DNA of 57,884 bases, taken from Vairimorpha necatrix. Its lineage: Eukaryota. The translations under genes and the position numbers were made by a program. The DNA lies in the NCBI GenBank assembly GCA_036630325.1, contig CP142730.1, positions 1,240,001 to 1,297,884 of the forward strand, read 5' to 3'. Below are positions 1-57,884 of this stretch, piece by piece (position 1 is the first letter of the stretch; each line of letters opens with the position of its first letter). The notes below the pieces were generated by a model. It was not told the DNA's origin and made no database searches. It worked only from the letters and a program-made list of their open reading frames with translations.

Positions 1-199
1 TGTCCAGTTTATTTTTTTTAGGAATAATTAAAATTTCTTTTTATTATTGGTTCTTATGCATTATTAACAAAAAAATTCATATTCTTTTATAATCAAAATT
101 TCGTAAATATAAATTTCGAAGTCCATTTTTTGACTAAAAAAGTAGTAAATTTATAACCGGTGTCAATTAAACATATTCAAAGATAGAATTTCCACTTAT

Positions 200-237
200 T
201 GTAGGGTTTAGAACCCTTAATAAATAAATGGTTAACA
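200..237 (+). repeat. 5' LTR, 38 bp
   Basis: Exact match to 3237-3274. Contains the AGGGTT/AACCCT hairpin, ACCC, overlapping AATAAA hexamers (219-228) and the ORF's ATG. Confidence 0.95.
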
Positions 238-3200
238 TGGCGAACACAAGGATGAACAGGGAAACAAGAGAGTCCCGTAGTCAAGAGGCTAGAACATTAG
301 AGAAAGAGGCAATTAGGATAGATAAGAGACTAAAGTTAATATTGAAAGTTGAGAAAGTTGAGTGGAAAGATGTTATGGATTTGGCATCTGCGAACTTGCA
401 GGATTATATTTTTGAAAATTTTTGTGACGGAAGGAGCAGTTGGGAGGAAATTTATAAAGGCTTACAAAAAGGAGCAGAATTTGAGAGAGAGTCAGAAGAA
501 AGACAAGAAATGATTAAAGAGATTATGGATAAAGTGTTGAAAGAGTTTAGGGAAGAAAGAAAAGAAAATCTTAGGATGTATAGGAAAAGAAGAGAAATCA
601 GAGAAACTACAAAATGTTTTATATGTAAGAAAGAAGGGCATTACGCTAGAGAATGTCATGAAAGTGTAGCTGGTAGGGAAAAATATAAAATTAAAAAGGA
701 ACAAGTTTTACAGAAAGAACCAATTATCAACAATGAAGGGAAAAGATGTAAAACAGTAAATAAGTTAGAAAATTTAATTGAAAAGTATCCGGAAGTTTTT
801 AAAGAATCAGAAGAAAAGATAAAATATCTCACAGGAGAGAAGTGTCCAATAAATACTAAGCAAGGTGAAAAGGTTGTGAAAAGAGGGCAGAATGTGCCAT
901 ACTACCTTAGGGTGAAATTTGAGGAGTACTTGAATAAGTTGGAAAATAGAGGGGTTATAAGACGTTCCAAAAGTGAGTGGAGGAGTCCAATAAGAGCACT
1001 TGAAAACCCAAATGGGGACGTAAGATTGGTAAGCAATTTGATGGCGTTAAACGATTTGGTTGACAAGGACCCGTACTCACTACCGTTAATTAAGGATATT
1101 ATGAGAGCCACACAGGGGTCAAAAGTATTTACGGTTATCGACTTAAAAGAAGGGTTTTATCATATTGAGATTGAGGAGCACCATAAGCACAAAACAGCAT
1201 TTGAAGTGAATGGTCGAGTATACGAATGGAATAGTATGGTTATGGGGTTTAAGAATTCGCCTCATATAATGCAGAGAGTAATGAACAGAGTTTTAGATGA
1301 ATTCAGAGGTAAAGGCGTGGAAGTATATATGGATGATATAGTTATTCATGGTAAAGACGTAAGAGTGCATGACGAGTTACTAGAGAGGGTAATTAAAAAG
1401 TTTAAAGAGTGTGGGTTGAGAATAAACCAAACAAAGATACAATACAAAAAAGATGAGGTGATGTTGCTGGGAGTAACAATTAATGGGGAGGTCATGGGAC
1501 CGAATGAGATTAAAAAGCAGGAGACATTGGAATATAGAAAACCTGAGAATGTTAGAGAGTTAAGAAGATTTTTAGGACTAACTGGTTGGTTTAGAGACTT
1601 TATTCCCAACTATGCGTATAGAACAGTAAGGCTTACTGAGGCTTTAAAGAAAGATGTTAAGTGGAATTGGACGGAGGATATGGAAAGAGCTTTTGAGGAT
1701 ATGAAGCAAGGCTTGAGAGATATGAAAAAGTTGAAGATTCCGGACGGAAAAAAGCTATTTAGAGTAAGAACTGATGCGTGTGATACGGGGATCGGAGCAA
1801 TTCTATTACAAGAAAATAAAGAGGGTGAGTGGATTCCGATACAATGGGCATCGAAAATGTTGACTCCTACCGAGCGAAGATATACGATAAGTGAGAAGGA
1901 GATGTTGGTGGTGTTTTTTGGAATAAAGAAGTTTGAAAGTGATTTGAGAGGAAGGAAATTTCATTTGATGACGGATCATAAAGCATTAGCAGAGATCAGA
2001 AATAAGCCATACTTCAATAATAACAGAATAAACAGATGGGTAGAACAGATACAAGAGTTTGACTTTACAATAGAGTATGTGAAAGGGGAGTTGATGACAG
2101 ATGCAGATGCGTTAAGTAGGCAGTATGATCAGGTAGAAGTTTCGGATGAACAAAAAGAAAAGGACAACAAGAGAAAAGAAGTGATCGAAAAACAAATTTT
2201 GGGAAAAAAGCAGAAACATATTAAAGAAAAGGACGGTAAACAGTATTGGGAATTTTCCACAGGTGAGGTGAAAGAGATATTGAGCCTAGATAGTAGAGAA
2301 CATGAAATAACAAGAGTACATGAGGAGTTAAACCATAGAGGTGTCAAAGGCACTTATTATAACATTAAACAAAGATGGTATTGGCCTGGTATGAAAGATC
2401 ATATTAATAAGGTAATTAAGAATTGTGAAATATGTGGGATTAACAATAGGAAAAACACAGGAGGATGTGATTTCGTAGTAACTAGAAAGAAATTGGAGAA
2501 AGTGGCGTTGGATTTAATGGACATAGGTGGAGAGAATAAGTATGTGTTACTGGGTATTGATTACTTTACTAGAAGGTTGTGGGGTTCGAATTTGAGATGT
2601 AAAGAGAGTAGTGAAGTTATAGAGGTATTACAAAAGTGGATAAGGGAAGATGGATTTCCAGAGGAATATGTGACAGACAACGGAAAAGAGTTTGTAAGTA
2701 ATAGATTTAAAGAATGGTGTAGTATTAATGATATTAAACATAGGAAAGTGGGCTTAGAAGCTCATAGGAGTAATGGTAGAATCGAGAGATGCATCAGAAC
2801 TATAAGAGAGACATTGATAAAGCAAAATGATGGGAATATTTCTGAAAAGATAGAAAGAGCAATCAAAGGATATAATAATACACTACATACAGCAATAAAA
2901 TGTACGCCGATGGAAGCGTGGAGAGATCAAACTGCTGAAGTTTTAATTGAAAATGATGAAAATGGAAAATATGCTGGTCGGTTCAAGAGAAGACACAGAG
3001 AGACATTTACAGTAGGCCAAGAGGTAAGAATCGCTAGGAGAGAAAATTTAGGTACACGTGCGAAAACAGACAAGGGAAGATTCACGGGTCGCGGAAGGAT
3101 CGTAGCTATAAGTGAAAATGATTCATATATTGTGAGACTACTGGATGGTAAAATTGTTAAAAAGAGGCATTATGATTTGAAAGAGATAAGGAAGAGTTGT

Positions 3201-3248
3201 TTAAAAGATGGAGAGACTACCCGTCTGGAGGGGGGATGTAGGGTTTAG
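228..3248 (+). CDS. Gag-Pol polyprotein (short Gag with CCHC knuckle, RT, RNase H, integrase); no protease motif seen
   Basis: 1006-aa ORF. CFICKKEGHYAREC knuckle; RT IDLKEGF...YMDD; RNase H TDAC...TDHKAL...ADALSR; integrase HEELNH...CEIC with LDLMD/TDNG/IERC; SH3-like C-terminus. An alternative ATG lies at 237. Confidence 0.95.
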   Translation: MVNMANTRMNRETRESRSQEARTLEKEAIRIDKRLKLILKVEKVEWKDVMDLASANLQDYIFENFCDGRSSWEEIYKGLQKGAEFERESEERQEMIKEIMDKVLKEFREERKENLRMYRKRREIRETTKCFICKKEGHYARECHESVAGREKYKIKKEQVLQKEPIINNEGKRCKTVNKLENLIEKYPEVFKESEEKIKYLTGEKCPINTKQGEKVVKRGQNVPYYLRVKFEEYLNKLENRGVIRRSKSEWRSPIRALENPNGDVRLVSNLMALNDLVDKDPYSLPLIKDIMRATQGSKVFTVIDLKEGFYHIEIEEHHKHKTAFEVNGRVYEWNSMVMGFKNSPHIMQRVMNRVLDEFRGKGVEVYMDDIVIHGKDVRVHDELLERVIKKFKECGLRINQTKIQYKKDEVMLLGVTINGEVMGPNEIKKQETLEYRKPENVRELRRFLGLTGWFRDFIPNYAYRTVRLTEALKKDVKWNWTEDMERAFEDMKQGLRDMKKLKIPDGKKLFRVRTDACDTGIGAILLQENKEGEWIPIQWASKMLTPTERRYTISEKEMLVVFFGIKKFESDLRGRKFHLMTDHKALAEIRNKPYFNNNRINRWVEQIQEFDFTIEYVKGELMTDADALSRQYDQVEVSDEQKEKDNKRKEVIEKQILGKKQKHIKEKDGKQYWEFSTGEVKEILSLDSREHEITRVHEELNHRGVKGTYYNIKQRWYWPGMKDHINKVIKNCEICGINNRKNTGGCDFVVTRKKLEKVALDLMDIGGENKYVLLGIDYFTRRLWGSNLRCKESSEVIEVLQKWIREDGFPEEYVTDNGKEFVSNRFKEWCSINDIKHRKVGLEAHRSNGRIERCIRTIRETLIKQNDGNISEKIERAIKGYNNTLHTAIKCTPMEAWRDQTAEVLIENDENGKYAGRFKRRHRETFTVGQEVRIARRENLGTRAKTDKGRFTGRGRIVAISENDSYIVRLLDGKIVKKRHYDLKEIRKSCLKDGETTRLEGGCRV

Positions 3249-3274
3249 AACCCTTAATAAATAAATGGTTAACA
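3237..3274 (+). repeat. 3' LTR, 38 bp
   Basis: Exact match to 200-237. Preceded by the PPT, followed by TSD CTTAT, and contains the ORF stop TAG (3246-3248). Confidence 0.95.
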
Positions 3275-6200
3275 CTTATTAATATCTCAAAGGATCTTTT
3301 TAATAGCTAGATTTAAATTTCATAACCCAAACATTATGTTCCTATTATTTTACCTTTTTAAAAATTTAAGTAAAATTTTTTAAATGAGGATAAACATACA
3401 ATTTCGAAATATGATTTTTTTTATGCCATTAAAATTGGAGATCATAATAAAAACAAAAACCTTTTTTATATTGAAAAGCCAACCATCGTACAAAAATTTC
3501 AATGGCCAATAACTTGTGATGCCTACCACAATGCTAAAAGGCTCTTGTCTGTATTAATATACAATTTTTTTTTGAACTATTTAGTAGTCCATTAGAAAAC
3601 AAGGCCATATTAAGTAATATTAAAATATTGCAAGAGCCTGTACTTAAATTACTAATTTGATCTAAGAAGTTACACGTGACAAGCAACATGTTCATTTTAA
3701 ATACTGTCAAAAGTATTCAAATTTTATCATACAGCTTCTAAAGCGTCGAATTAATTTTTGAAATTTTAGTATTTCATTTCTATTTTTTAACTCGAAATAC
3801 AAAATCAAAAAATTAGAATTGCTCAAATGAAAGATTTGAAAATCTCAATCAAATATGAGAACAAACATGAAGACTCATAGAAATTCAAACAAACAAATAG
3901 AACTATCTAGGCGCAAAAGCAAAAGTTTTTAATAATAGAAAAACATAAAATTTTTTATTAAGCTTTGAAAGAGTGCAATTTTGTTTGTCAATAAAAAATA
4001 ATGTAAACTCGAGAATATGTTCTTTGAGATACATTCCTCCATTGAATTTTATTATTCAAATTCCTTGTTTTCTATTCCACTGAGATTTATTTTAGGAATT
4101 ATTACTATCAATATAAGATTTTATATCAGCTTTCATTTCATTATGAATCTCTCGTTTCTTTGTATATAGCCTGGTATTTAGTGATTATGTTGCTACTGAG
4201 AAAACTTTTTATTATGAAAGATCAAAAAACATATTATATTGGGAATACAGACGAAACTATACATATTTACAAACCACATAAAAAATAATAGAACAGCAAA
4301 CGCAAAATATGCAAATGTAGTTAATTGTTCTAAAAAGGCGCCTTAAAATATCTATTATTCCATGAGCACATTTTTTTAAACCTGTAAAAATCGGACATTT
4401 AATGGTCAAATAAAAAACCTGTCTTTTATGATTTTTTTACAACAATATATCCGAAAAGACGCTGTATTCAACCTTTTTCAAAGACGAATGGCACATACTA
4501 ATCCGTCCCTACTTATTTAGACCATTTTTTAAAAAAGTACTCATGTAATTTGCTTTTCAGGTGAGCAATATAGAGCTATATAATAAATGTATTTTTTCTA
4601 CTACAAATGTAGTTAATTTGCTTAGGACTAATTTGATTTTGAGCTTATCTTTGTATTTTGTTATAATTCTTCATCTTGTCTTGGCTTTTTTTAGGAAAAG
4701 AATAAAGAAAACTTATATACTGACAAAGAATATCCTATCTACTGTACAAATATTATAAATTGTTTTCCTCTCTCTTTTTTTAGTACAAATTTCACTTATT
4801 ACTAATAATATAGTCTCCATAAGAAACTTAAGACGTTTTTTAATTTTTTTTGTTAGTATGAAATTGTTATACCACTATTTTTATCTAAAAAATGTATAAA
4901 TTTTTTCTTCTAAGTTTGATATTTAAAATCATAATCACAGTAGTTATTATATAGCTAATTTAACTTTCATTAAATCCGATTTTTTTTTCATTTCTAACAG
5001 TACTACAATCATCTATCAGTATTAGTTCCCTTTAAAAATTCTTGTTAAGTCTTTACGAAATATTTCCGTTTAAATTATCATGTTCTTTAACAATTTGGTC
5101 AATTTTTATAATTGACAATTTATAAATAATTTTAAACTTTGATATTTAAGCATCAAAGATACTATTTATTAGTCAAAGCTTATATTAAGAATAATAACGA
5201 AAGTCAAATATTACAATATACTACATAATTCCTATTAAAATATATGTAAACAGATATTCATAATTTTTAAATCTACGACCATATATTTGTAATATATATT
5301 ATCATTTGAAATTATTCAGTCATTTGAATTTTTTTCATATAAATAAAAGACTTTGTGTCTTATTTTGTACCTAGCTTAAAACGTGCAAAATTTATTTCAA
5401 TGGGTTTTTATAAAAATATTAATAGAGATAGATTACTTTTTTTTCCTCAAATAGTGTCAACAGTAATTTATTAAAGACGGGGACGCGTTTTAACAAAACG
5501 TAAAAAATAATATGTACCTCATAAATATTTACTTTTCAGACTTTGTATATTTTCTAAATATATATAAGTTTTTTTTCATTAAAATTTTAATTTTGATTTT
5601 AAAATTCATACTCTTATTGTATAATTTTCTAATTTGTACAAAACCACTGAGTAATTTTATTCTAACCACGAAAAGCAGCATAATAAACAATATAACAGAT
5701 AAAGTTTGATAAACAAAAAAACATATTTGTATTCAAATATCATTACCCCCTTGCGCCTTAGTACGCCATCCCTTAGAACACGCCACCAGTTTACTGTTAG
5801 ATAAGCATTGTTTTCTGTAATCGACAGATTTACTTATAAAAGTTAAATCTTGAGCCGTAAATGTTTTTAATATATCATATGATAAATTTAGATAAGGTAT
5901 AACTTTTTTAAGAAATTCCAAGTATGTGGACTTTTTTTTCCTCGCAAAAAAGTATGAAAAATTTACGAGCATTAGATTATAAATGAAATTTTAGACATAC
6001 TATATTGCTAATCAATCAAATATTTTTAATAAGTAAAAAAATTGATCAAGCATTTAAGAATTTGTTAAGAAAATATTAAGACTGAAAAATCAAAAATAAA
6101 ATCTTTTGATGTATTTGTATTTGCTAATGGGTATGCTTTTTACAGCTTAACAAATTGCAAATTTCTATGTTATCTTGTGAATTGCGTAAAATTTTTTTTA

Positions 6201-11901: not shown

Positions 11902-12930
11902 TTATAATTCATTTATAGCATTTTTAGTATGTTTAATCTTAAATAATTTGTAAGAATAATACATAACTAGAATTATTAATGGAATAATGATGAATAATAC
12001 AACAGTTATTAGATTAGATGGAGACATCACAGGGTTACGCTTAGTATCGCCATCATCAGAAGATGAATCTTCTTCATTAACATGATTTGATTGCGAAATC
12101 TCCTGTTTGATATCAAGCTTGCTAGGATTGCAATCCTCTTTAGTACGGAAAACTGGTTTTTTGTTGTCATATAATTCTGTCTTGGTATTGTTTTCTCGAA
12201 ATTCAATTGTACTAGTATCAAAATTCTTATCAAATTCTAATTCTTTATTGGTATTATTTTCTCGAAATTCAATTGTACTAGTATCAAAATTCTTTTCAAA
12301 TTCTAGTTCTTTATTGGTATTATTTTCGCTAAATTCAATTGCATCAGTTCCAGAATTCTTTTTAAATTCTACTTCTTTATTATTATTATTTTCTCTAAAT
12401 TCAATTGCATCAGTTCCAGAATTCTTTTTAAATTCTACTTCTTTATTATTATTATTTTCTCTGAATTTAATTGCATCAGTATCAGAACGTTTTATAAATT
12501 CTAATTCATTATTGTTATTATTTTCTCTAAATCCAATTGCATCAGTATCAGAACGATTAATAAAAGCCAATACTTTAATGGTATTGTTTTCTCTAAATTC
12601 AATTGCGTCAGTATCAGAATTTTTTTTAAATTCTTTTTCGTGTTGAAATACCTCTATAAAATTAATATTTACATAATATTTATACTCTATCTTTGGTTCA
12701 CTTTTATCATCAATGATTACACTTGCAACTTCGCTTTTGAAAGATTCTATATCTAACGCATTCACATTTTGCTCTTTAATTTCTATTCTCGATTCATTTT
12801 CAATACGTAAATGCCTTCTTAATGCTTGATATTTTAAATAAATGGATACAATACCAGACAAATATTCAATAATATGATTTCCATGATTAATGAAAGTTAA
12901 ATATAAGCAAACAAACATGATAAAAAACAT
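11902..12930 (-). CDS. Hypothetical type I membrane/surface protein with 22-aa tandem repeats
   Basis: Lies within the 368-aa ORF. The likely start is the ATG at 12930 (GCCCTATT-ATG), giving a hydrophobic N-terminus MFFIMFVCLYLTF. C-terminal TM LITVVLFIIIPLIILVMYY. Confidence 0.85.
   Translation of the reverse strand: MFFIMFVCLYLTFINHGNHIIEYLSGIVSIYLKYQALRRHLRIENESRIEIKEQNVNALDIESFKSEVASVIIDDKSEPKIEYKYYVNINFIEVFQHEKEFKKNSDTDAIEFRENNTIKVLAFINRSDTDAIGFRENNNNNELEFIKRSDTDAIKFRENNNNKEVEFKKNSGTDAIEFRENNNNKEVEFKKNSGTDAIEFSENNTNKELEFEKNFDTSTIEFRENNTNKELEFDKNFDTSTIEFRENNTKTELYDNKKPVFRTKEDCNPSKLDIKQEISQSNHVNEEDSSSDDGDTKRNPVMSPSNLITVVLFIIIPLIILVMYYSYKLFKIKHTKNAINEL
12180..12640 (-). repeat. Intragenic 66-bp tandem repeat (about 7 copies)
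   Basis: ATTCAATTGTACTAGTATC recurs at 12201 and 12267. Peptide unit of type IEFRENNTNKELEFDKNFDTST. Confidence 0.92.
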
Positions 12931-14342: not shown

Positions 14343-14440
14343 TCTATTGTAGGAAGTGCTACACATGTCAAATATATTGTGTCATTGTTTTGATATATTT
14401 GACATGTTGTTTCTTTAAATATTTTATAATAATTAAACCC

Positions 14441-15667
14441 ATGTTTTTATCCCAACAATTTGGCGACAACGTCAGGAACTTTCTCATTTTCAGAAATGAA
14501 GAAAAAGATGATCCACAACAGTTCTTGGAGGACTTGCAGGATGTGGGGAGGCTGATGGAGTACAGTGAGAGTAAACTTGTACTCCTTTTCAGAATGTCGT
14601 TAAAAGATGAAGCGAGGGATTGGTTGATAGCGCAGCCAATTGGTCTTTCACTTGAAAGACTGAAATTTTTGTTTCAAGAAAGATTTGTGGGTTCTATGGC
14701 GATGAAAGTGAGTATAGATAAACTTTCCGCTCTTCAATATCATGGTGGATCGCTAATCAACTATCTAGATAAGATGGCGGGATTGGCGCGCAGGGCGAAT
14801 GTTCCGGAAGGTGTATTAATTGCTTTTGTACTAAAAGGAATTCCGAACAATATAGCAAATTCGATCTTAATAAATAACAAAGACTCATTATCCTGGGAGT
14901 ACCTATATAAAGCCATAAGGAATGTTTTGGAAGTGGATGATACACGTCATAAAGAAATTTCGCGTGGAGATTATGTGGATGTAAAAGCGATTAGCTGCAA
15001 GGTCCACGATAGAAAGATTTGGACTTCTAAAAGGAACAAAGAAAAGAGATGTTTTATTTGCGGAAAGAAAGGCCATACAGTAGCACGGTGTAAATTTAAT
15101 AGTTACCGTAGAGATATAAGCGAAGTCAAGAAACCCCAAGAAGAAGGAGAAAATAAGAAGGTGGATGTAAAGGAATTTATTTATAATTACTCTGTTGCAA
15201 AGGTCAAGGATGATAGGACTACGCTCAAAGAAGCGTCATTAAATAATTCGGAAGTTAAATTTAAAGCGCTCATCGATACTGGTGCTGATATAAATCTAAT
15301 TAGACCAGAGATTTTGCCAAATAAAACCGTTGTTAATCGTTCTAAACAACAGCTTAGGGCAGCCAATGGATCGAAAATAAGGATCATTGGAGAAACAGTA
15401 GTTAAAATAAAAATTGAGGGAATGATATTTGAAGATAAATTTATTATTACTAGGGATATCACAATTCCCTGCATTATAGGACAGGGGTTACTAGACATGT
15501 ACAAGATAAATTTAAAATTTGGAAGTAACAAAATGGAAATTGAATCTGGACTTTTGGCAAAGGGAAAAGCCATAGGATACATAAAATTATCACAAAGAAT
15601 GATAACCCAATACTATCTCAGTTATACAAATTGGGGGGAGCAAAAGAGGATATTGCGTCCCAAATAG
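14441..15667 (+). CDS. Gag-protease
   Basis: Start ACCC-ATG at 14441 inside the 5' LTR. Retrotransposon-gag-like LKDEARDW...FQERF; CFICGKKGHTVARC knuckle; protease ALIDTGADINLI...IIGQGLL. Confidence 0.9.
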   Translation: MFLSQQFGDNVRNFLIFRNEEKDDPQQFLEDLQDVGRLMEYSESKLVLLFRMSLKDEARDWLIAQPIGLSLERLKFLFQERFVGSMAMKVSIDKLSALQYHGGSLINYLDKMAGLARRANVPEGVLIAFVLKGIPNNIANSILINNKDSLSWEYLYKAIRNVLEVDDTRHKEISRGDYVDVKAISCKVHDRKIWTSKRNKEKRCFICGKKGHTVARCKFNSYRRDISEVKKPQEEGENKKVDVKEFIYNYSVAKVKDDRTTLKEASLNNSEVKFKALIDTGADINLIRPEILPNKTVVNRSKQQLRAANGSKIRIIGETVVKIKIEGMIFEDKFIITRDITIPCIIGQGLLDMYKINLKFGSNKMEIESGLLAKGKAIGYIKLSQRMITQYYLSYTNWGEQKRILRPK

Positions 15668-17934
15668 TGAAAGAGTATCTAAAACGTGGAATAGTTAGAC
15701 CAAGTGTAAGCGCATGGCGAAGCCCGATAATTATAGTCCCTAAAAAGAATGGAGACCACAGATTATGTGTGGATTATCGAAGATTAAATGATGCGACTAT
15801 TAGAGATGCGTATCCAATGCCTAGAGTAGAAGAGTTCATCAACGCTTTAGAGGGTGCAACATACTTTACTAAATTAGACGCTGAATCGGGCTATCACCAA
15901 ATAGATATGGCGCCGTGTGATATTGAGAAGACAGCCTTTGCCTGTAGAGAAGGCTTATTTGAATTTACAAAAAAGCCATTTGGACTTGTTAATGGTCCAG
16001 CTACATTTCAGCGGGTGATGAATAACATATTGAGGGAATTTTTGTTTAAGTTTGTGGTAGTATATATGGATGATATACTGATTTATAGTAAAACTGAAGA
16101 AGATCATAAGAAAGATGTTCAAATGGTATTAGAGAAGCTCAAGTCGGTAGGACTGAAACTTAATGAGGATAAATGCGAATTTAATAAGACAGAATTAAAA
16201 ATTTTAGGTCATGTGATATCAAAAGAGGGAATAAGTGTGGACGAAGAAAGGTTTAGGAGCATTCAACAGTTACCAATTCCTAAAAGTAAGAAGAAATTAC
16301 AATCTTTGTTGGGGCTGTATAATTATTGCTCTAAATTTATTAAAAACAGCCATAAAGTGGTTAGCCCACTATTCGATATAATAAGACTCAAGAATGAGGA
16401 CGCTGATAACTTTTGGAAAAATGCAGAGAATGATGCAAAATACTGCAAGGCAATCGAAGAGGTAAAACAGGCTATGAAGAGAACAGCTTTATTGACAATT
16501 CCAAATTTAAAGGATAGATTTATATTGACTACGGATGCATCGAATGAGGGAAGTGGGGCAACATTGGCTCAGATGGTCGGAGGAAAAGAAAAGATTATTT
16601 CTTATTACAGCTCTTTACACTCCAAGACAGAAAAAAACTATTCTACTACTGAGCAAGAATTGCTAGCAGTTATAAAATCGATTCAAAACTTCAGAGAATA
16701 TTTATTATTGGGGAAATTTACGCTAAAAACGGATCATCAGGCTTTAAAATATTTGTTTAAGTCTAGGAATGTAAAAGCTAGGTTGGCTAGATGGTCATTA
16801 CTGCTACAAGAATATGATTTCGACATTGAATATATTACAGGACCATCAAACCATACAGATCACCTAAGCAGAGATTTTAAAAAACAGGAGGAGATAGTTT
16901 CAGAAATAAGTTCAATACAAAGGAAAATAGTTAAAAAAGAAAGGACAATAGTGTTATTAAAGTTTTACCATGATTTATTAGGGCATGGATCAAAACAAAA
17001 TATGAAATATAATATTGGTCGAAAATTTACTTGGAAGAATATGAGTAGAGACATAGAAAATTATGTAGATAATTGTGAAATTTGTCAAAAAGAAAAACCT
17101 CAGAGAAAATTTAGAGATATTGTACCATTAGTAACAAAGACAATAGGAGAAATCTGGGAAGTAGACATAGTAGGGCCCTTGAGAGAAAGCGAGCAAGGAT
17201 ATAAATTTTTATTGACAATGATTGATCACTTTTCGAAAATTGCAGAGGTGGTGCCGATTTATACAAAAGATATGAATACGGTTATTTATCTGGTAGATAA
17301 ACATATAGTCAGGAAGTATGGTATTCCAAAGGCAATTTTATCTGATAATGGTAAAGAATTCAAAAATAATATCTGTGAGGAATATGCGAAGACCAAAAAA
17401 TTCATCTGGAAATATGGTTCCCCTTATAAACCTACAACCACGGGGCTTGTTGAGAGGTTTAACAGAACAATAGCCATAAAATTAAGGAAGGTTACAGAAT
17501 TTGGGAAATTTGATTGGGCGAAATGTGTCCCTAAAGTAGTCCGAGCCTATATGCAATCATATCATAGGGCTATAGGGTGTGCACCAATAGAACTTTTAAC
17601 AGGAATAGTTCCAAATAAGATAGATATACAAGAAGGAATGCACCTAACAAAGGATAAGAAAGAGTTTCAGAAGCAGGCGATTAAGAATTTGGAAGTTTAC
17701 AGACAAGAATATGACACGGGTAATAAAGCTAATGCTGTTGATAAGGATGCCATTAAGGTGGGAGATAGAGTTTGGTATCATTTAATTTTACCGTTTAGAG
17801 GAAAACTCGAACCAAAATGGGAAGAAAAAGGAGTTGTAGTAGAGAAAAAATTTCATTCATTTAAAGTTTTATTAGATAGTGGGAAGACTGTTACAGCAAG
17901 CCGAAATCATGTTAAGCTTTTAAAGGAGGGGTAG
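15544..17934 (+). CDS. Pol (RT-RNase H-integrase), in the -1 frame relative to gag-PR
   Basis: Frame open from 15544. HKIITKNDNPI, LCVDYRRLN, YMDD, TDAS, TDHQAL, HDLLGH...CEIC, VDIVG/SDNG/VERFN. No ATG start of its own near the 5' end. Confidence 0.9.
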   Translation: MWTFGKGKSHRIHKIITKNDNPILSQLYKLGGAKEDIASQIVKEYLKRGIVRPSVSAWRSPIIIVPKKNGDHRLCVDYRRLNDATIRDAYPMPRVEEFINALEGATYFTKLDAESGYHQIDMAPCDIEKTAFACREGLFEFTKKPFGLVNGPATFQRVMNNILREFLFKFVVVYMDDILIYSKTEEDHKKDVQMVLEKLKSVGLKLNEDKCEFNKTELKILGHVISKEGISVDEERFRSIQQLPIPKSKKKLQSLLGLYNYCSKFIKNSHKVVSPLFDIIRLKNEDADNFWKNAENDAKYCKAIEEVKQAMKRTALLTIPNLKDRFILTTDASNEGSGATLAQMVGGKEKIISYYSSLHSKTEKNYSTTEQELLAVIKSIQNFREYLLLGKFTLKTDHQALKYLFKSRNVKARLARWSLLLQEYDFDIEYITGPSNHTDHLSRDFKKQEEIVSEISSIQRKIVKKERTIVLLKFYHDLLGHGSKQNMKYNIGRKFTWKNMSRDIENYVDNCEICQKEKPQRKFRDIVPLVTKTIGEIWEVDIVGPLRESEQGYKFLLTMIDHFSKIAEVVPIYTKDMNTVIYLVDKHIVRKYGIPKAILSDNGKEFKNNICEEYAKTKKFIWKYGSPYKPTTTGLVERFNRTIAIKLRKVTEFGKFDWAKCVPKVVRAYMQSYHRAIGCAPIELLTGIVPNKIDIQEGMHLTKDKKEFQKQAIKNLEVYRQEYDTGNKANAVDKDAIKVGDRVWYHLILPFRGKLEPKWEEKGVVVEKKFHSFKVLLDSGKTVTASRNHVKLLKEG

Positions 17935-18049
17935 TGTAGGAAGTGCTACACATGTCAAATATATTGTGTCATTGTTTTGATATATTTGACATGTTGTTTC
18001 TTTAAATATTTTATAATAATTAAACCCATGTTTTTATCCCAACATCTAT

Positions 18050-30227: not shown

Positions 30228-30288
30228 TAGGTTAGGAATCGGTAGGTTAGTTTAGGTAGGTTAGGTAAGTAGGTTGGTAGGTTAGGTA
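30228..30288 (+). repeat. Interstitial telomere-like tract (degenerate TAGG/TTAGG)
   Basis: TAGGTTAGG...GGTAGGTTAGTTTAGGTAGGTTAGGTAAGTAGGTTGGTAGGTTAGGTA, on the same strand as the terminal telomere. Confidence 0.85.
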
Positions 30289-30939: not shown

Positions 30940-31722
30940 TTTTATTATTGTTCTATAAATGACACTTGAGTATCTTTATTTGGTTTTAAAGCATTTATGA
31001 AATTTGCCATTTTCCCATCTCCTTCTATTATACATATATAAGAAGACAAATCTTGAAAAATATGAAAAATTCAGAACAGCCGAAAATGCATATAAATACA
31101 CATTATTGTTATATAAGTAAAGTTGAGTATCTTTATATGTTTTTAAAGCATTTAAGAAATTTGCCATTTTTACATCTCTTTCTTGTATATATATATAAGA
31201 AGACAAATCTTGAAAAATATGAAAAATTCAGAACAGCCGAAAATGCATATAAATACACATTATTGTTATATAAGTAAAGTTGAGTATCTTTATATGTTTT
31301 TAAAGCATTTAAGAAATTTGCCATTTTTACATCTCTTTCTTGTATATATATATAAGAAGACAAATCTTGAAAAATATGAAAAAAAAAGATGCTGAAAATG
31401 CATATAAATACACATATTGTTATATAAGTATCACTTGAGTATCTTTTTTTGTTTTTAAAGCATTTAAGAAATTTGCCATTTTTACATCTCTTTCTTGTAT
31501 ATATATATATAAGAAGACAAATCTTGAAAAATATGAAAAAAAAAGATGCTGAAAATGCATATAAATACACATATTGTTATATAAGTATCACTTGAGTATC
31601 TTTTTTTGTTTTTAAAGCTTTTATGAAATTTGTTAATTTTCCATCTCATTCTAGTATACATATATAAGAAGACAAATCTAGAAAAATATAAAAAAATTAA
31701 GAACAGCTGAAAATGCATATAA
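30940..31722. repeat. 157-bp tandem satellite, about 5 copies
   Basis: AGAAGACAAATCT recurs at 31041, 31198, 31355, 31512 and 31667. Confidence 0.95.
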
Positions 31723-52056: not shown

Positions 52057-55000
52057 TATTAAAGTCGAACCTATTATTAAATAAATGTATAACATGGCGA
52101 ACACAAAATACGAAAGGTTAACACAAGTGAGACCTGTGTTTAAGAGAAGAAAAAAATACTAAAAGAAGCTCGGAGAGTGAGACAATCATCATAATGCAGA
52201 AAGATGTACAAGATGTGACAACATAAAAAGGAAGCAAGTAAGTACTGAACTTCAAAATTTTAATATTGATAAAAAACTACTTAGTATGATAAATTGGAAT
52301 GATATTATTGATAGAATTGATAAATTAGTTGTGAAGAGAAAGAGATAAGAACAAGAAAAAAATAAGGTGTAGAGAACTAGAAGATATGGTAGAGGGTATG
52401 AAAGAAAAATTAAAAAGAGAGAAAAAAAAAAAGATTTCACTAGAACTGTAGCAGTGCCAGGAAGTTACTTATAATATCAAAGACGAAAAAAAAACATTGT
52501 TTTATATGTGTAAGAATTATACATATAGCTAGAGGTTGTATGGAGCGTAAAGGAAGACATGAAGAGAATAATGAAAATAAAAGTGTTAAATATTTATGCA
52601 TTCGTGGTAATAGTAAAATGAAAATATTAAAAGGAATTGATTTCAAATTGAGACTACCAGTGGAGGTAGAAAGAGAGAACTCAAGAAACAGTTTTTATGT
52701 AAAAAATTCAAACCAAGATAAAAGAAGAAAAAATATTAATAAATATGAAGAATTAGAAGGAAAATTTTCGAGGTATTGTGAAAAGACGAAGGAAAAAGAA
52801 AATACTCAACAGGGATAAAATGTTCTTTTAAAACAAAACAATGAGTGAAATTAGTGCAAAAGAAACAAAATATTCCTTATAAACTTTGAGAAAAGTTAGA
52901 AAAGTATATTAATTTATTAGAAAGTAGAGGTATTATCAGAAGGACAAAGAGCAAATGGAAAAGCCTAATAAAGCCCATAGAAAAACCAAATGGTAAAGTA
53001 CAATTGAGAAGCAATTTGATGGCTTATAATGAACTGGAATAAAAAGATCTGTATGAAATGCCATTGATTAGAGACATATTAAAGCAACGCAAGGTTCTAA
53101 AGTATTTATGGTTATAGACCTAAAGGAAAGATTCTATCATATAGAAATTGAGAGAGCTTACAAACATAAGACAGCTTTTAAGATAAATGGTAGAGTTTAC
53201 GAATGGAATGGCATGGTAAAAAATTAAAAAATGCTCCCCATATTCTGCAAAGAGTGATGAACGGAGTTTTAAATAAGTTTAGAGGCAAGAGTGTTGAGTT
53301 GTACATGGATGATATTATTATTTATGCATGAGATAGTAATATACAAGAAAATTTTTTAAAACAAGTAATTCGAAAATTTAACGAATGTGGATTTAAAGAA
53401 ACTTAAAAAAGATACAATATAAAGGAGAAGTAAAACTACTGGAGTAACAATTAACTGAGAAGACATTAAAATGAAAAAATATATAGGAGTAGACATTAGA
53501 ATACAGAAAGCCTAACAACATAAAAGATCTTAGAAGAGTTGAGGAGCGGGCAGGCTGGTTAAGAGATTTTATTCATCATTATGCTTATCGGTCAGCGCTT
53601 CTTACAAGAGCACTAAAAAAAGATAGTAAATGAAAATGGTTACAAGATATGGAAAGAGCTTTTATGGATATCAAAGAGGATTTAAAGGATGTGAAAAAAT
53701 TAAAAATAGAAGATAGATAAAAAAAATATTTAGAGTAAGAACGTGTGCATGCGATACGACAATTGGAGCCATACTTCTGCAAGAAGACAAGGAAGATAGG
53801 TGGATTTGAAACAATGGGCATCAAAAATGATAACATTAACAGATAAAAAGTATATGATTACTAAAAAAGAGATGTTGGCAGTGTTATTCGGAATAAAGAA
53901 ATTTGAGTCAGATTTGTGAGGAAGAAAAATTCATTTAATAACAGATCATTAATCACTGGCCGAGATTAGAAACAAACCGTTTTTCAATAATTACATAATT
54001 AAGAGATGGATAGAATATATACAAGAGTTCGATTTTATTTTTGAATATGTAAAAGGAGAATTGATCACGTATTTATATGCTCATAGTAGACAATTTAAAA
54101 AAACGAAGTGAAAGTAAAAAAGCGAAAGTAGAAACGGCCCAAAAACAGATGAAAGAAAAAGAAATAAAGCGCATGGTCAATAGAAAAGGTAAAAACTATT
54201 GGAAGTTTTCAACAGGAGAAATTAATAAATACAACACAAAGAAATAAGTGAGAACAGAAATTCATAGAGTTCATGAGGAATTAAATCATCGAGGAGTTAA
54301 GGGAACACATTATAAGATTATACAAAGATGGTACTGGCCAGGTATGAAGGACCAGATAACCACATCGCTAAAAAATTGTTAAGTATGTAGCATTAATAAC
54401 AGAAACGCGACCTGAGGTTGCAATTTTGTAACAACATTCAAGAAATTAGAAAAAGTAGTTTAGACGTATTGGATATTGTAGAAAAAGAAAGGTACGTGCG
54501 GTTAGGTATTGACTACTTTGAGAGAAAGAGTATGGGGCGCAAAGATGAAAAATGAGAGAAGTGATGTTATTACGAAAATTTTAGAAAAAATTGTTTAAGG
54601 AAGATGGATACACAGATGAATATTTTACGGATAACGGTAAAGAATTTGTCAGTAATAAGTTTGTAACTTGGTGTAAAGTAAACGAAATTATGCAATAGAA
54701 AGTAGGTTTAGAAGCTCATAGGAGTAATGGAAGAATAGAACGATGTATTTGAACAATAAGGGAATCGATGATCCATGAAAAAGAAGGAAACCCAGAGGAA
54801 AAACTAGAACAAGCTGTAAGAACTAATAATTCTTACACACAGCGATTAATTCAACACAATTGAAGCATGGAAAGAACAAGGAAAATAAGTCTTTATTGAA
54901 AACAATAAAAAGGGTGTGTATTCAAGTAATTTTAATTTAAGGCATAGAGAAAAATTTGAAGTAGATCAGGCTGTGAGAATTGCAATAAGAGAAAACAAGG

Positions 55001-55228
55001 GTAAATAGATGAAAAGTATGAAAGGAAGATTTACAAATGTTGATAAAAGGAGGGGAAAGTCTGAGAATAATTCTTATATTGTAAGGATTGATAGCGGAAG
55101 ATACATTAAGAAAGACATTATGACCTAGAATTTTATAAAAATGATAAATTAGAAGCTTGTAACCTGAGACTACCCGTTTGAAGGAGAAATGTTAGGGTTG
55201 AACTTTCCTATTAAATAAATGTATAACA
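52057..55228 (+). mobile_element. Decayed full-length family A Gypsy element with 38/39-bp LTRs
   Basis: LTRs at 52057-52094 and 55190-55228 end in identical TATTAAATAAATGTATAACA. TSD TATAA on both sides. Same PBS TGGCGAACAC and pre-PPT GAGACTACCCGT as the copy at 200. Colinear pol (YMDD near 53302; HEELNHRG near 54272) with many stops and frameshifts. Confidence 0.93.
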
Positions 55229-55391: not shown

Positions 55392-57884
55392 TTAGTTAGG
55401 TTAGGTAGGGTAGGTTAGGTAGGTTAGGTAGGGTAGGTAGGTAGGTTAGGTAGGTGGTAGGTAGGTGGTGGTGGGGGTAGGTTAGGGTAGGGTGGTTAGG
55501 TGGTTAGGTAGGTGGTGGTAGGTAGGGTAGGTAGGGTGGGGTAGGTAGGTGGTAGGTTAGGTAGGTAGGTTAGGTAGGTAGGTAGGTAGGTAGGTAGGTT
55601 TAGGTAGGTTAGGTAGGTAGGTAGGTAGGTTAGGTAGGTTAGGTTAGGTAGGTAGGTTAGGTAGGTAGGTTAGGTAGGTAGGTTAGGTTAGGTAGGTTAG
55701 GTAGGTTAGGTAGGTTAGGTAGGTTAGGTAGGTTAGGTAGGTAGGTAGGTAGGTAGGTAGGTAGGTGTAGGGTTAGGTAGGTAGGTAGGGTAGGTAGGTA
55801 GGTTAGGTGGTTAGGTTAGGTTAGTAGGTTAGGTTAGGTGTTAGGTTAGGTAGGTTAGGTAGGTAGGTTAGGTAGGTTAGGTAGGTTAGGTAGGTAGGTA
55901 GGTTAGGTTAGGTAGGTAGGTAGGGTGGTTAGGTAGGTAGGTAGGTAGGTAGTAGGTAGGTAGGTTAGGTAGGTAGGTAGGTAGGTAGGTAGGTTAGGTA
56001 GGTTAGGTAGGTAGGTAGGTGGTAGGTAGGTTAGGTAGGTAGGTAGTAGGTTAGGTAGGTTAGGTAGGTTAGGTAGGTTAGGTAGGTTAGGTAGGTTAGG
56101 TAGGTAGGTTAGGTAGGTTAGGTAGTAGGTTAGGTAGGTTAGGTAGGTAGGTAGGTTAGGTAGGTTAGGTTAGGTAGGTAGGTAGGTAGGTAGGTTAGGT
56201 TAGGTAGGTTAGGTTAGGTAGGTTAGGTAGGTTAGGTTAGGTTAGGTAGGTTAGGTTAGGTAGGTAGGTTAGGTTAGGTAGGTTAGGTAGGTTAGGTAGG
56301 TAGGTTAGGTTAGGTAGGTTAGGTAGGTTAGGTTAGGTTAGGTAGGTTAGGTAGGTAGTAGGTAGGTTAGGTTAGGTAGGTAGGTAGGTTAGGTAGGTTA
56401 GGTTAGGTTAGGTAGGTTAGGTTAGGTAGGTAGGTTAGGTAGGTAGGTAGGTTAGGTAGGTAGGTAGGTAGGTTAGGTAGGTAGGTTAGGTTAGGTAGGT
56501 AGGTAGGTAGGTAGGTTAGGTAGGTTAGGTAGGTAGGTAGGTAGGTTAGGTTAGGTTAGGTAGGTTAGGTAGGTTAGGTAGGTTAGGTAGGTAGGTAGGT
56601 TAGGTAGGTTAGGTAGGTAGGTTAGGTAGGTTAGGTAGGTTAGGTAGGTAGGTAGGTAGGTTAGGTAGGTAGGTAGGTTAGGTAGGTAGGTTAGGTAGGT
56701 TAGGTTAGGTAGGTTAGGTTAGGTTAGGTAGGTTAGGTAGGTTAGGTTAGGTTAGGTAGGTAGGTAGGTTAGGTAGGTAGGTAGGTTAGGTTAGGTAGGT
56801 TAGGTAGGTTAGGTAGGTAGGTTAGGTAGGTTAGGTTAGGTTAGGTTAGGTAGGTTAGGTTAGGTAGGTAGGTTAGGTAGGTTAGGTAGGTTAGGTAGGT
56901 AGGTTAGGTAGGTTAGGTTAGGTAGGTTAGGTAGGTAGGTAGGTTAGGTAGGTTAGGTTAGGTAGGTAGGTAGGTTAGGTAGGTTAGGTTAGGTAGGTAG
57001 GTAGGTTAGGTAGGTTAGGTAGGTAGGTTAGGTAGGTAGGTTAGGTAGGTTAGGTAGGTTAGGTAGGTTAGGTTAGGTAGGTTAGGTAGGTTAGGTAGGT
57101 AGGTTAGGTAGGTTAGGTTAGGTAGGTAGGTTAGGTAGGTAGGTTAGGTAGGTTAGGTAGGTAGGTAGGTAGGTTAGGTAGGTAGGTTAGGTAGGTAGGT
57201 AGGTAGGTTAGGTAGGTTAGGTAGGTTAGGTAGGTAGGTAGGTTAGGTAGGTTAGGTAGGTTAGGTAGGTAGGTAGGTTAGGTAGGTAGGTTAGGTAGGT
57301 AGGTTAGGTAGGTAGGTTAGGTTAGGTAGGTTAGGTAGGTTAGGTAGGTTAGGTAGGTTAGGTTAGGTAGGTAGGTAGGTAGGTAGGTTAGGTAGGTTAG
57401 GTAGGTTAGGTAGGTAGGTTAGGTTAGGTTAGGTAGGTTAGGTAGGTAGGTTAGGTTAGGTAGGTTAGGTAGGTAGGTTAGGTAGGTAGGTAGGTAGGTT
57501 AGGTAGGTAGGTAGGTAGGTTAGGTAGGTTAGGTTAGGTTAGGTAGGTTAGGTAGGTAGGTAGGTTAGGTAGGTTAGGTAGGTTAGGTTAGGTAGGTAGG
57601 TAGGTAGGTTAGGTTAGGTTAGGTAGGTAGGTTAGGTTAGGTAGGTTAGGTTAGGTAGGTTAGGTAGGTTAGGTAGGTTAGGTAGGTAGGTTAGGTAGGT
57701 TAGGTAGGTAGGTTAGGTAGGTAGGTTAGGTAGGTTAGGTAGGTAGGTTAGGTAGGTTAGGTAGGTTAGGTAGGTAGGTAGGTAGGTTAGGTAGGTTAGG
57801 TAGGTAGGTTAGGTAGGTTAGGTAGGTAGGTTAGGTTAGGTTAGGTAGGTAGGTAGGTTAGGTAGGTTAGGTAGGTAGGTAGGT
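55392..57884 (+). repeat. Telomeric tract, irregular mix of TAGG and TTAGG
   Basis: About 2.5 kb of G-rich repeats running to the window end. The proximal part has TAGGG/TGG/TAG variants. Beyond about 56360 I see only TAGG and TTAGG. Confidence 0.97.

Follow-up and report, generated by a model that had tools for sequence, protein, structure and literature searches.

We analysed a window of 57,884 nt from contig CP142730.1 of the microsporidian Vairimorpha necatrix (assembly GCA_036630325.1), to whose positions all coordinates refer, and which carries a retrotransposon with long terminal repeats (LTRs) at 200-3274 (Table 1). The element spans 3075 bp and is 98% coding. The sequence-only reading had described identical 38-bp TG...CA repeats, a CTTAT target-site duplication (TSD), a primer-binding site (PBS) and a polypurine tract (PPT) abutting the repeats, and an uninterrupted open reading frame (ORF) of 1006 amino acids (aa), all of which were borne out. 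The 38-mers at 200-237 and 3237-3274 are the sole long perfect repeat within positions 1-5000, and, given the composition of the flanks, a 5-mer match such as the TSD would be expected by chance with a probability of ~0.003. The PBS, TGGCGAACAC, begins with TGG and starts at 238, with no gap to the 5' LTR. The ORF opens at LTR position 29 with an ATG and closes inside the 3' LTR with a stop codon (3246-3248); the frame thus runs from LTR to LTR, taking in the PBS, the PPT and part of each LTR. A second ATG is made up of the last A of the LTR and the TG of the PBS, and the N-terminus of the protein is encoded by the PBS.

Table 1. Features of the element at 200-3274 and of the rest of the window
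Feature	Positions	Strand	Basis or remark
Left TSD, CTTAT	195..199	.	sequence inspection
5' LTR, 38 bp, TG...CA	200..237	+	identical to 3' copy
GGG/CCC hairpin in putative U3	203..217	+	fold; similar hairpin in locus L002 and the second window family
Two overlapping AATAAA hexamers (LTR 20-29)	219..228	+	5' copy overlaps predicted transcription start
Single ORF, 1006 aa: mini-Gag, reverse transcriptase (RT), RNase H, integrase	228..3248	+	uninterrupted
PBS, adjoining LTR	238..249	+	12 nt common to second window family 52057-55228
Capsid N-terminal-half remnant, helical (aa 14-83), apparent	267..476	+	profile match and model helices
Long charged helix (aa 72-127), at the place of the second capsid half in sister Gags	441..608	+	model and profile comparison
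CCHC zinc knuckle (aa 130-143)	615..656	+	Pfam
36-aa linker, knuckle to RT leader, position of absent protease	657..764	+	
RT (aa 180-480; Pfam RVT_1 aa 261-418, YMDD)	765..1667	+	
RNase H (aa 481-611)	1668..2060	+	
Integrase HHCC zinc domain (aa 690-741)	2295..2450	+	
Integrase DDE core (D762, D817, E853)	2511..2879	+	
Integrase C-terminal beta domain (aa 932-986)	3021..3185	+	structure model
GAGAC...GTCT motif preceding PPT	3213..3226	+	conserved among relatives; seen by eye in Anncaliia retro L
PPT, 10-nt purine run adjoining 3' LTR	3227..3236	+	codes E-G-G
3' LTR, 38 bp, identical	3237..3274	+	contains stop codon 3246-3248 and hexamers 3256-3265
Right TSD, CTTAT	3275..3279	.	sequence inspection
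Second family, same lineage	52057..55228	+	3172 bp; LTRs 38/39 bp, diverged; TSD TATAA
Conventional Gypsy element	14348..18044		identical 110-bp LTRs; TSD TCTAT; ATG in LTR after CCC; protease-bearing
~2-kb element	43483..~45480		diverged direct repeats of ~300 bp; PPT-like run before second repeat
66-bp tandem repeat inside 342-aa ORF	12172..12634	minus	
Short interstitial telomere-like patch	30228..30287		
157-bp tandem array, five copies	30944..31722		
Composite telomere	55393..57884		318 TAGG and 220 TTAGG units

Pfam places a zinc knuckle at aa 129-144, RT at 261-418, RNase H at 481-611, the integrase HHCC domain at 690-741 and the integrase core at 764-839, and the same scan of the 1006-aa ORF returned no protease family and no capsid family. 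The TG...CA repeats, the 5-bp TSD, the PPT, the order RT-RNase H-integrase with its HHCC and DDE motifs, and the grouping of the RT/RNase H are those of Ty3/Gypsy elements, but the aspartic protease that these carry between Gag and RT is missing, and we therefore file the element as a derived offshoot of Ty3/Gypsy. The Gypsy label given to it earlier consequently holds for descent, domain order, TSD and PPT, but not for a canonical member of the group: the missing protease and what appears to be half a capsid had gone unnoted.

The absence of the protease extends to the lineage. No D[ST]G motif precedes the RT in any of its 55 proteins, several of which are partial and one of which (P0042) looks permuted. 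When 38 members were scanned, no retropepsin family was among the 25 of 47 Pfam families shown. Two points weigh against these negatives: Peptidase_A17 gave weak matches in 3 of the 38 rows (best E 0.047, position not shown), and protease profiles are described in PMC3248453 as poorly sensitive to diverged proteases. Because of this insensitivity we built a profile from 18 proteases of the sister lineage. It did not exceed 1.5 bits on any of the 58 lineage rows or 1.3 on any of the six frames of the element, as compared with 33.6 bits on the window element at 14348-18044 and more than 15 on 45 of 160 other proteins; the 58 rows had first been labelled by the missing motif, and the motif and profile tests are thus not independent. 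The space available is more decisive. Between the knuckle and the RT leader there is a stretch of only 36 aa, whereas the protease segments aligned occupy roughly 100 aa, and this leaves no room for one in this copy. Across the lineage (42 rows) the knuckle lies 51-195 aa from the RT (median 74), as against 124-144 in six of seven protease-bearing sisters, the seventh not being measurable, and AlphaFold models show helix and coil only between knuckle and RT, with no beta-rich domain. A very diverged or cryptic protease could draw on the weak Peptidase_A17 matches, on the insensitivity of general profiles and on the few relatives whose linkers, at 134-195 aa, are long enough to hold it; with 36 aa available here, and with a sister-derived profile that detects even distant proteases finding nothing, it is vanishingly improbable, and for this copy largely refuted. 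We conclude that the lineage has no aspartic protease. Its members keep the catalytic residues of RT, RNase H and integrase in 37-38 of 38 rows and so are not decaying passengers.

Of 9 rows in the sister group whose protease motif is visible, 5 have an altered catalytic triad (DLG twice, DRG, DAG and DPG), which suggests that selection on the protease had relaxed before it was lost. This sister clade (P0121-P0132, represented in DNA by locus L007) also lacks a zinc knuckle, and by its sequences could possibly be an intermediate stage of protease decay.

Upstream of the knuckle, the model of the N-terminal region has helices at aa 14-39, 46-52 and 55-65 and a long helix at 72-127. In profile comparison the alignment to sister Gags is confined to aa 21-83 and to their first half (E 1.9e-5, probability 77.6); it is weaker against two other groups (probability 27-32), and the sister-group Gags align to each other over 92-145 columns. 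These alignments and the model point, with moderate confidence, to a capsid whose N-terminal half was kept and whose second half was replaced by the long helix. The modest homology (probability 77.6) weighs against this reading. Foldseek with the N-terminal model gave nothing at E 0.001 or better, its only matches being those of the knuckle to nucleocapsid proteins, and VIA-align gave a best Z of 6.1 to generic helical bundles, with the Arc C-lobe at Z 5.5 (root-mean-square deviation 3.1, 63 aligned) not above background. Gag-like clusters in the ESM Atlas, at 0.78-0.82 for the N-terminal region, are a lead only.

Among 7999 scored candidates 128 homologues were found. The lineage forms a block of 55 among the 120 listed, scoring 423-1358 bits, and all listed homologues outside it score at most 302 bits; complete proteins are ~1000 aa long, and the named close homologues come from Nosema granulosis and Vairimorpha necatrix, which, together with the telomere of the window, points to a host of Nosema/Vairimorpha type. 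Of 22 Logan contigs whose ORFs are nearly full, 18 are no more than 100 bp longer than the ORF, and the internal region of the lineage therefore contains almost no untranslated sequence. M-A or M-G occurs within the first 11 residues in 27 of 34 rows with a full N-terminus, corresponding to the ATG formed by the A at the LTR end and the TG of the PBS, as seen in the DNA of the window, of locus L034 and of the sister locus L007. The N-termini vary among M-A-N, M-A-S, M-A-T, M-A-P and M-G-A. A coding PBS that varies between families suggests that switches of primer tRNA took place under coding constraint. The L-numbered loci are retrotransposon contigs in three bacterial metagenome-assembled genomes (MAGs; G001-G003, L002-L038), and P numbers denote protein rows. 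The window holds no tRNA gene, and no tRNA pattern matching the PBS was found in the three MAGs. These MAGs hold microsporidian-type retrotransposon contigs, with 50, 4 and 16 matches, which we attribute to contamination.

The earlier reading had proposed a lineage of LTR retrotransposons with minimal repeats, and its relatives indeed have LTRs of 38-50 bp rather than conventional long ones. A second family of the lineage at 52057-55228 is old and frameshifted, adjoins the telomere, shares ~68% nucleotide identity over RT-integrase with the element and shows no trace of a protease; its 5' LTR differs from the 3' LTR by several G-to-A changes. The LTR is 38 bp in L002 (3' end only; 66% amino-acid identity to the element), 47 bp in L034 (5' end only) and 46 bp in L035 (3' end only), so that, with retro L of Anncaliia (50 bp as listed), five families have LTRs of 38-50 bp. 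Protease-bearing elements have LTRs of 58 (L009), 67 (L007), 75 (L020), 110 (window element 14348-18044) and ~176 bp (L015). Where both LTRs are present at a MAG locus, the TSDs do not match, as collapsed repeats would predict, and only LTR lengths were used. By these comparisons tiny LTRs are a trait of the lineage. Beyond these sources, a metagenome scan reduced 47 pattern matches to one unrelated locus and a scan of viral contigs gave none in 81. A profile search among representative sequences was swamped by concatenated predictions; for 16 single-length matches checked, the protease profile gave more than 13 bits in 11 and not in the other 5.

The element also grouped, in the RT phylogeny called for earlier, among protease-bearing proteins of Ty3/Gypsy type, with midpoint rooting. 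In an RT-RNase H tree built on 97 rows, 6 being dropped because their cover was short, 53 protease-less rows form a clade with SH-aLRT 99, in a second tree of 47 chosen rows 21 protease-less rows do so with support 100/98, and in both the clade nests among protease-bearing microsporidian Gypsy-type proteins. Both trees contain no Copia, BEL or named reference elements, and some protease labels in the outgroup were not checked. A single origin of the loss is not secure (73/36; 74% of bootstrap trees), and since the protease-less rows P0049 and P0135 are unplaced there may have been one loss or two. This uncertainty counts against our best explanation. By its sequences the lineage is an old one, derived from microsporidian Ty3/Gypsy elements, that lost the protease and probably the second capsid half.

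The GAGAC...GTCT motif ahead of the PPT is kept by relatives in different reading frames, and for this reason is probably a cis element acting at the level of RNA or DNA. Pairing of the 5' region with this motif was rejected, as 264 of 399 control windows pair equally well.

We then looked for independent support of the junctions in Logan contigs of four runs (X1, X2 and X3 among them) aligned to window positions 1-3600. Contigs of X1 cover 220-1630 with one difference and 1601-3265 with four. In X1 and X2 alike, one contig joins 189 to 3269, a skip of 3079 letters where an empty site would give 3080; the letters between the joins are marked as not known and the flanks are ~7% diverged from the window. 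The join appears to be that of an empty site, and may instead represent another allele or a paralogous site. Foreign flanks join the element at 3236 (X2, X3) and at 196 (X2), and 47 further loose ends are not listed. The depth of X1 contigs is ~60 over the element and ~3 on the flanks; contig depth is not copy number, and we regard this contrast as only suggestive. Runs with small shares (X6-X15) do not enter these comparisons, and the 19 runs listed included none of RNA, which says nothing about expression. The element had also been called a recent integration. The apparent empty site and the near-identical copies uphold this, but the identity of the LTRs, on which the claim had leaned, dates little: zero differences in 38 bp are compatible with a divergence of up to ~7.6% (95% upper bound), and dating by LTR identity was rejected as weak. 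We conclude that the element is recently mobile. Five positions (1007, 1909, 2539, 2943 and 3204) differ between the window copy and the form seen in X1 and X2, one of them at a nearly invariant residue, which counts against activity of this particular copy and means that it may be inactive.

In X2 the depth is 1228 over 287-671 and 465 over 2685-3254, as compared with 61-143 in the middle and 20 on the flank. Because depth is higher at the ends than in the middle, we suggest that internally deleted, non-autonomous derivatives of this family exist, are abundant and are mobilised by it. The same profile could be taken to mean that the element itself is a dead deletion derivative or an assembly artefact, its short repeats being remnants of longer LTRs. 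This is very improbable, as the TSD adjoins both ends and the empty-site skip is 3079 against 3080, five divergent families share LTRs of 38-50 bp and the same layout, and ORFs and catalytic residues are intact across the clade. The anatomy of the element, its lineage, the absence of the protease, the intact catalytic residues and the apparent insertion polymorphism are the parts of this account in which we have high confidence.

How an LTR of 38 bp could hold both a promoter and a poly(A) signal may be understood from the signals of the host, which for RNA polymerase II would be compact enough. According to PMC2803860, microsporidian 5' untranslated regions are shorter than 7 nt and closely preceded by a CCC motif, and a hexamer, AAUAAA or AUUAAA, occurs close to the stop codon; in Nosema the CCC motif is no more than 20 bp away from the start codon (PMC11592040). 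In the element, the CCC at 214-216 (LTR 15-17), a candidate promoter motif of host type, is the sole CCC before an in-frame ATG. The LTR end lies 13 nt after the first A(A/T)TAAA in all three families with 38/39-bp LTRs and 14-26 nt after the hexamer in six longer LTRs examined. We propose that transcription would start between the CCC and the ATG, at about LTR 18-28, with cleavage at or near the terminal CA. U3, with the att end, the hairpin and the CCC, would then measure ~17-27 nt, R ~10-20 nt and U5 ~0-3 nt, and the hexamers of the 5' copy, overlapping the start, would not act there. A tRNA would prime at the abutting PBS, strong-stop DNA of 10-20 nt would jump to the 3' R, the PPT would prime the plus strand and the DDE integrase would insert the TG...CA ends with a 5-bp TSD. 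In mouse mammary tumour virus an R of 16 nt is functional (PMC6088434). We think this layout of U3, R and U5 likely. It is weakened by the position of the CCC, which lies 11 nt from the ATG where it lies 0-4 nt before it in all three host ORFs checked, and by R and U5 themselves, whose extents we infer; the release by RNase H of so short a strong-stop DNA is a gap in the scheme. Two other devices were tried and rejected. An internal promoter for a separate Pol fails as no CCC precedes any internal in-frame ATG, and a -1 frameshift into the stop at 770 (A AAT TTA) is unsupported, as the ORF contains nine such heptamers and this one is not kept in L002.

Without a protease, we propose that the Gag-RT-RNase H-integrase polyprotein would work uncleaved and in cis, on the RNA that encodes it, within a ribonucleoprotein that the helix and the knuckle hold together and not within a matured closed particle, and that extra mini-Gag would come from a short, internally polyadenylated mRNA. 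To action of the uncleaved chain in cis we give an even chance, its uncleaved state being what we infer, which tempers the proposal. Overall, a recently mobile, miniaturised, protease-less LTR retrotransposon using the proposed mechanism is the best explanation, and a somewhat probable one.

The proposal of a short mRNA arose from a motif, NK-x4-Y, that follows the knuckle. Of 40 rows, 20 have NK...Y in the 32 aa that follow the knuckle (mean 3.8, maximum 12 in 2000 shuffles; background 1.2% of 4275 windows), and the Y stands exactly four residues after the K in 19 of 26 occurrences as against 6 of 194 elsewhere, although these counts come from related rows that are not independent. The position of the motif floats, 2-17 aa from the knuckle. 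Its DNA reads AATAAA, 9 nt and TAT in the second window family, AATAAA, 12 nt and TAT in retro L (by eye), and ATTAAA, 12 nt and TAT in L016, where Ile-Lys replaces Asn-Lys. Cleavage 13-14 nt past the hexamer, the spacing seen at the LTR ends, would let the poly(A) tail complete a UAA stop and yield a Gag-only mRNA, and the motif may thus be an internal poly(A) site. In the plant Ty1/Copia element EVADE (PMC5580714) a short GAG RNA gives a Gag-only product, and the likeness to members with NK-x4-Y would lie in the single ORF and the extra Gag from a prematurely terminated transcript; EVADE differs in that the process is splicing-coupled and the protease retained, whereas our proposal involves no intron and a stop completed by poly(A). 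Several observations speak against such a role. The motif is absent from this copy, from its three closest relatives, from L034 and from 16 other rows; the candidate hexamer in this copy, ATTAAA at 690-695, followed after 12 nt by TTA in frame, is weak, and a poly(A) role for it is speculative. The motif also stands just upstream of the protease in some protease-bearing relatives, and could instead be a retained cleavage site.

This last point bears on whether the element depends on its neighbours. It could be semi-autonomous, supplying its own RT, RNase H and integrase and being co-packaged with, and cleaved by the protease of, a co-resident Gypsy element, from which it might perhaps also take the capsid. 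An element with an intact DTG protease, at 14348-18044, which could act in trans, tells against full independence; all three contaminated MAGs with lineage members also contain protease-bearing elements, and in some sisters NK-x4-Y lies near the expected Gag/protease cut. However, the element's own linker has no conserved candidate site, a floating motif with Ile-Lys in L016 suits a poly(A) hexamer better than a protease site, and the sister group's own proteases have altered triads, so that we consider cleavage in trans unlikely. A host protease cutting in the flexible linkers (aa 144-179 and ~630-665) is improbable: the model does show low-confidence, exposed linkers at aa 156-176 and near 631-650, but no linker sequence is conserved besides NK-x4-Y, which 20 of 40 rows lack. 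Full autonomy, in which an uncleaved chain, a 38-bp LTR with almost no U5, no protease or closed capsid, and a Gag:Pol ratio set by internal poly(A) addition completing UAA would suffice, we advance only tentatively and regard as doubtful.

Protease-bearing microsporidian Ty3/Gypsy elements (the L007/P0121, P0137/L009 and P0143 groups, the window element at 14348-18044 and most Anncaliia families) resemble this one in the RT-RNase H-integrase order, the TG...CA ends, an ORF that begins within the LTR and short LTRs, but they have a retropepsin and a two-half capsid and are mostly 3.3-4.3 kb long. The Nbr elements of Nosema bombycis, attributed to Xu et al. 2006, reportedly belong with them. 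Ty3 of yeast and the Metaviridae share the PBS, here of putative tRNA type, the PPT, the 5-bp TSD, the CCHC knuckle and the domain order, and Ty3 differs in having LTRs that measure hundreds of bp, in controlling its Gag:Pol ratio by frameshift, in its two-domain capsid and in depending on maturation by protease. DIRS/Ngaro elements, LINEs and hepadnaviruses replicate without an encoded protease, and the LINE ORF1p combines a coiled coil with a nucleic-acid-binding domain; none of these combines a DDE integrase with TG...CA LTRs and tRNA priming, and the likeness is functional only. In DIRS/Ngaro a tyrosine recombinase replaces the DDE integrase and there is usually no TSD, and membership was rejected given the rve DDE core and 5-bp TSD of the element.

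The closest described relative is retro L of Anncaliia algerae, listed by Parisot et al. 2014 (PMC4202319) as complete, with 3127 bp, an LTR of 50 bp and an ORF at 32-3049. We compared it by table values and by eye, with no identity computed and no place in the trees. It has an ATG inside the LTR, a second ATG at the LTR/PBS junction, the same motif before the PPT, and one knuckle running into the RT with no protease motif; it differs in its LTR (49-50 against 38 bp), in a CCC that follows the hexamers and in an ORF that stops before the 3' LTR. In the main text of PMC4202319 the word protease does not occur, and its relevant passages make no remark on LTR size. The novelty foreseen for the family thus stands in that no earlier description was found in print, but is slightly reduced by a relative with a 50-bp LTR having been tabulated without comment. 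Among the 50 complete families of that table the median LTR is 191 bp, 4 LTRs are below 100 bp, and 43 families have an ORF that begins within the LTR. Its supplement lists retro S with an LTR of 45 bp; by eye the PBS starts near position 80, and the listed LTR may therefore be too short. The shortest LTR that we found discussed in print is that of FRetro129, a non-coding TRIM/SMART element with 85 bp (PMC3281118). TRIM/SMART elements share very short terminal repeats and a 5-bp TSD with this one but are non-coding and non-autonomous, and its LTR is less than half as long; membership was rejected given the 1006-aa ORF. No protease-less or tiny-LTR lineage was described in the literature consulted, including the relevant parts of PMC12449221, PMC13174016, PMC3614468 and PMC7313128; Xu et al. 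2006 and Repbase lay outside its scope and could reduce the novelty.

Maturation by a protease, a two-domain capsid and LTRs of at least 100 bp count as basic features of LTR retrotransposons and retroviruses. A lineage that is old and transposes with LTRs of 38-50 bp, no protease and apparently half a capsid sets a natural lower bound on the parts required, and a construct of 3 kb could address whether RT and integrase function in fused form and what the minimum lengths of R and U5 are. It would also suggest that the compact transcription signals of a host drive the reduction of its parasites. LTR finders set to a 100-bp minimum, confirmed as the default of LTRharvest (PMC2253517), miss an active microsporidian family.

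Of the other elements in the window, the conventional one at 14348-18044 reads Gag-protease in one frame and RT-integrase in another. The heptamer G GGA AAA stands in frame at 15562 and is followed by a weak hairpin; a programmed -1 shift, placed behind the protease and not behind Gag, is possible from this sequence. The element at 43483-~45480 has fragmentary Gag-like frames with a zinc motif and no match among the retrieved proteins, and is probably a decayed or internally deleted LTR element. The window closes on a composite telomere, and such a mix of TAGG and TTAGG units is described for Nosema muscidifuracis (PMC11592040).

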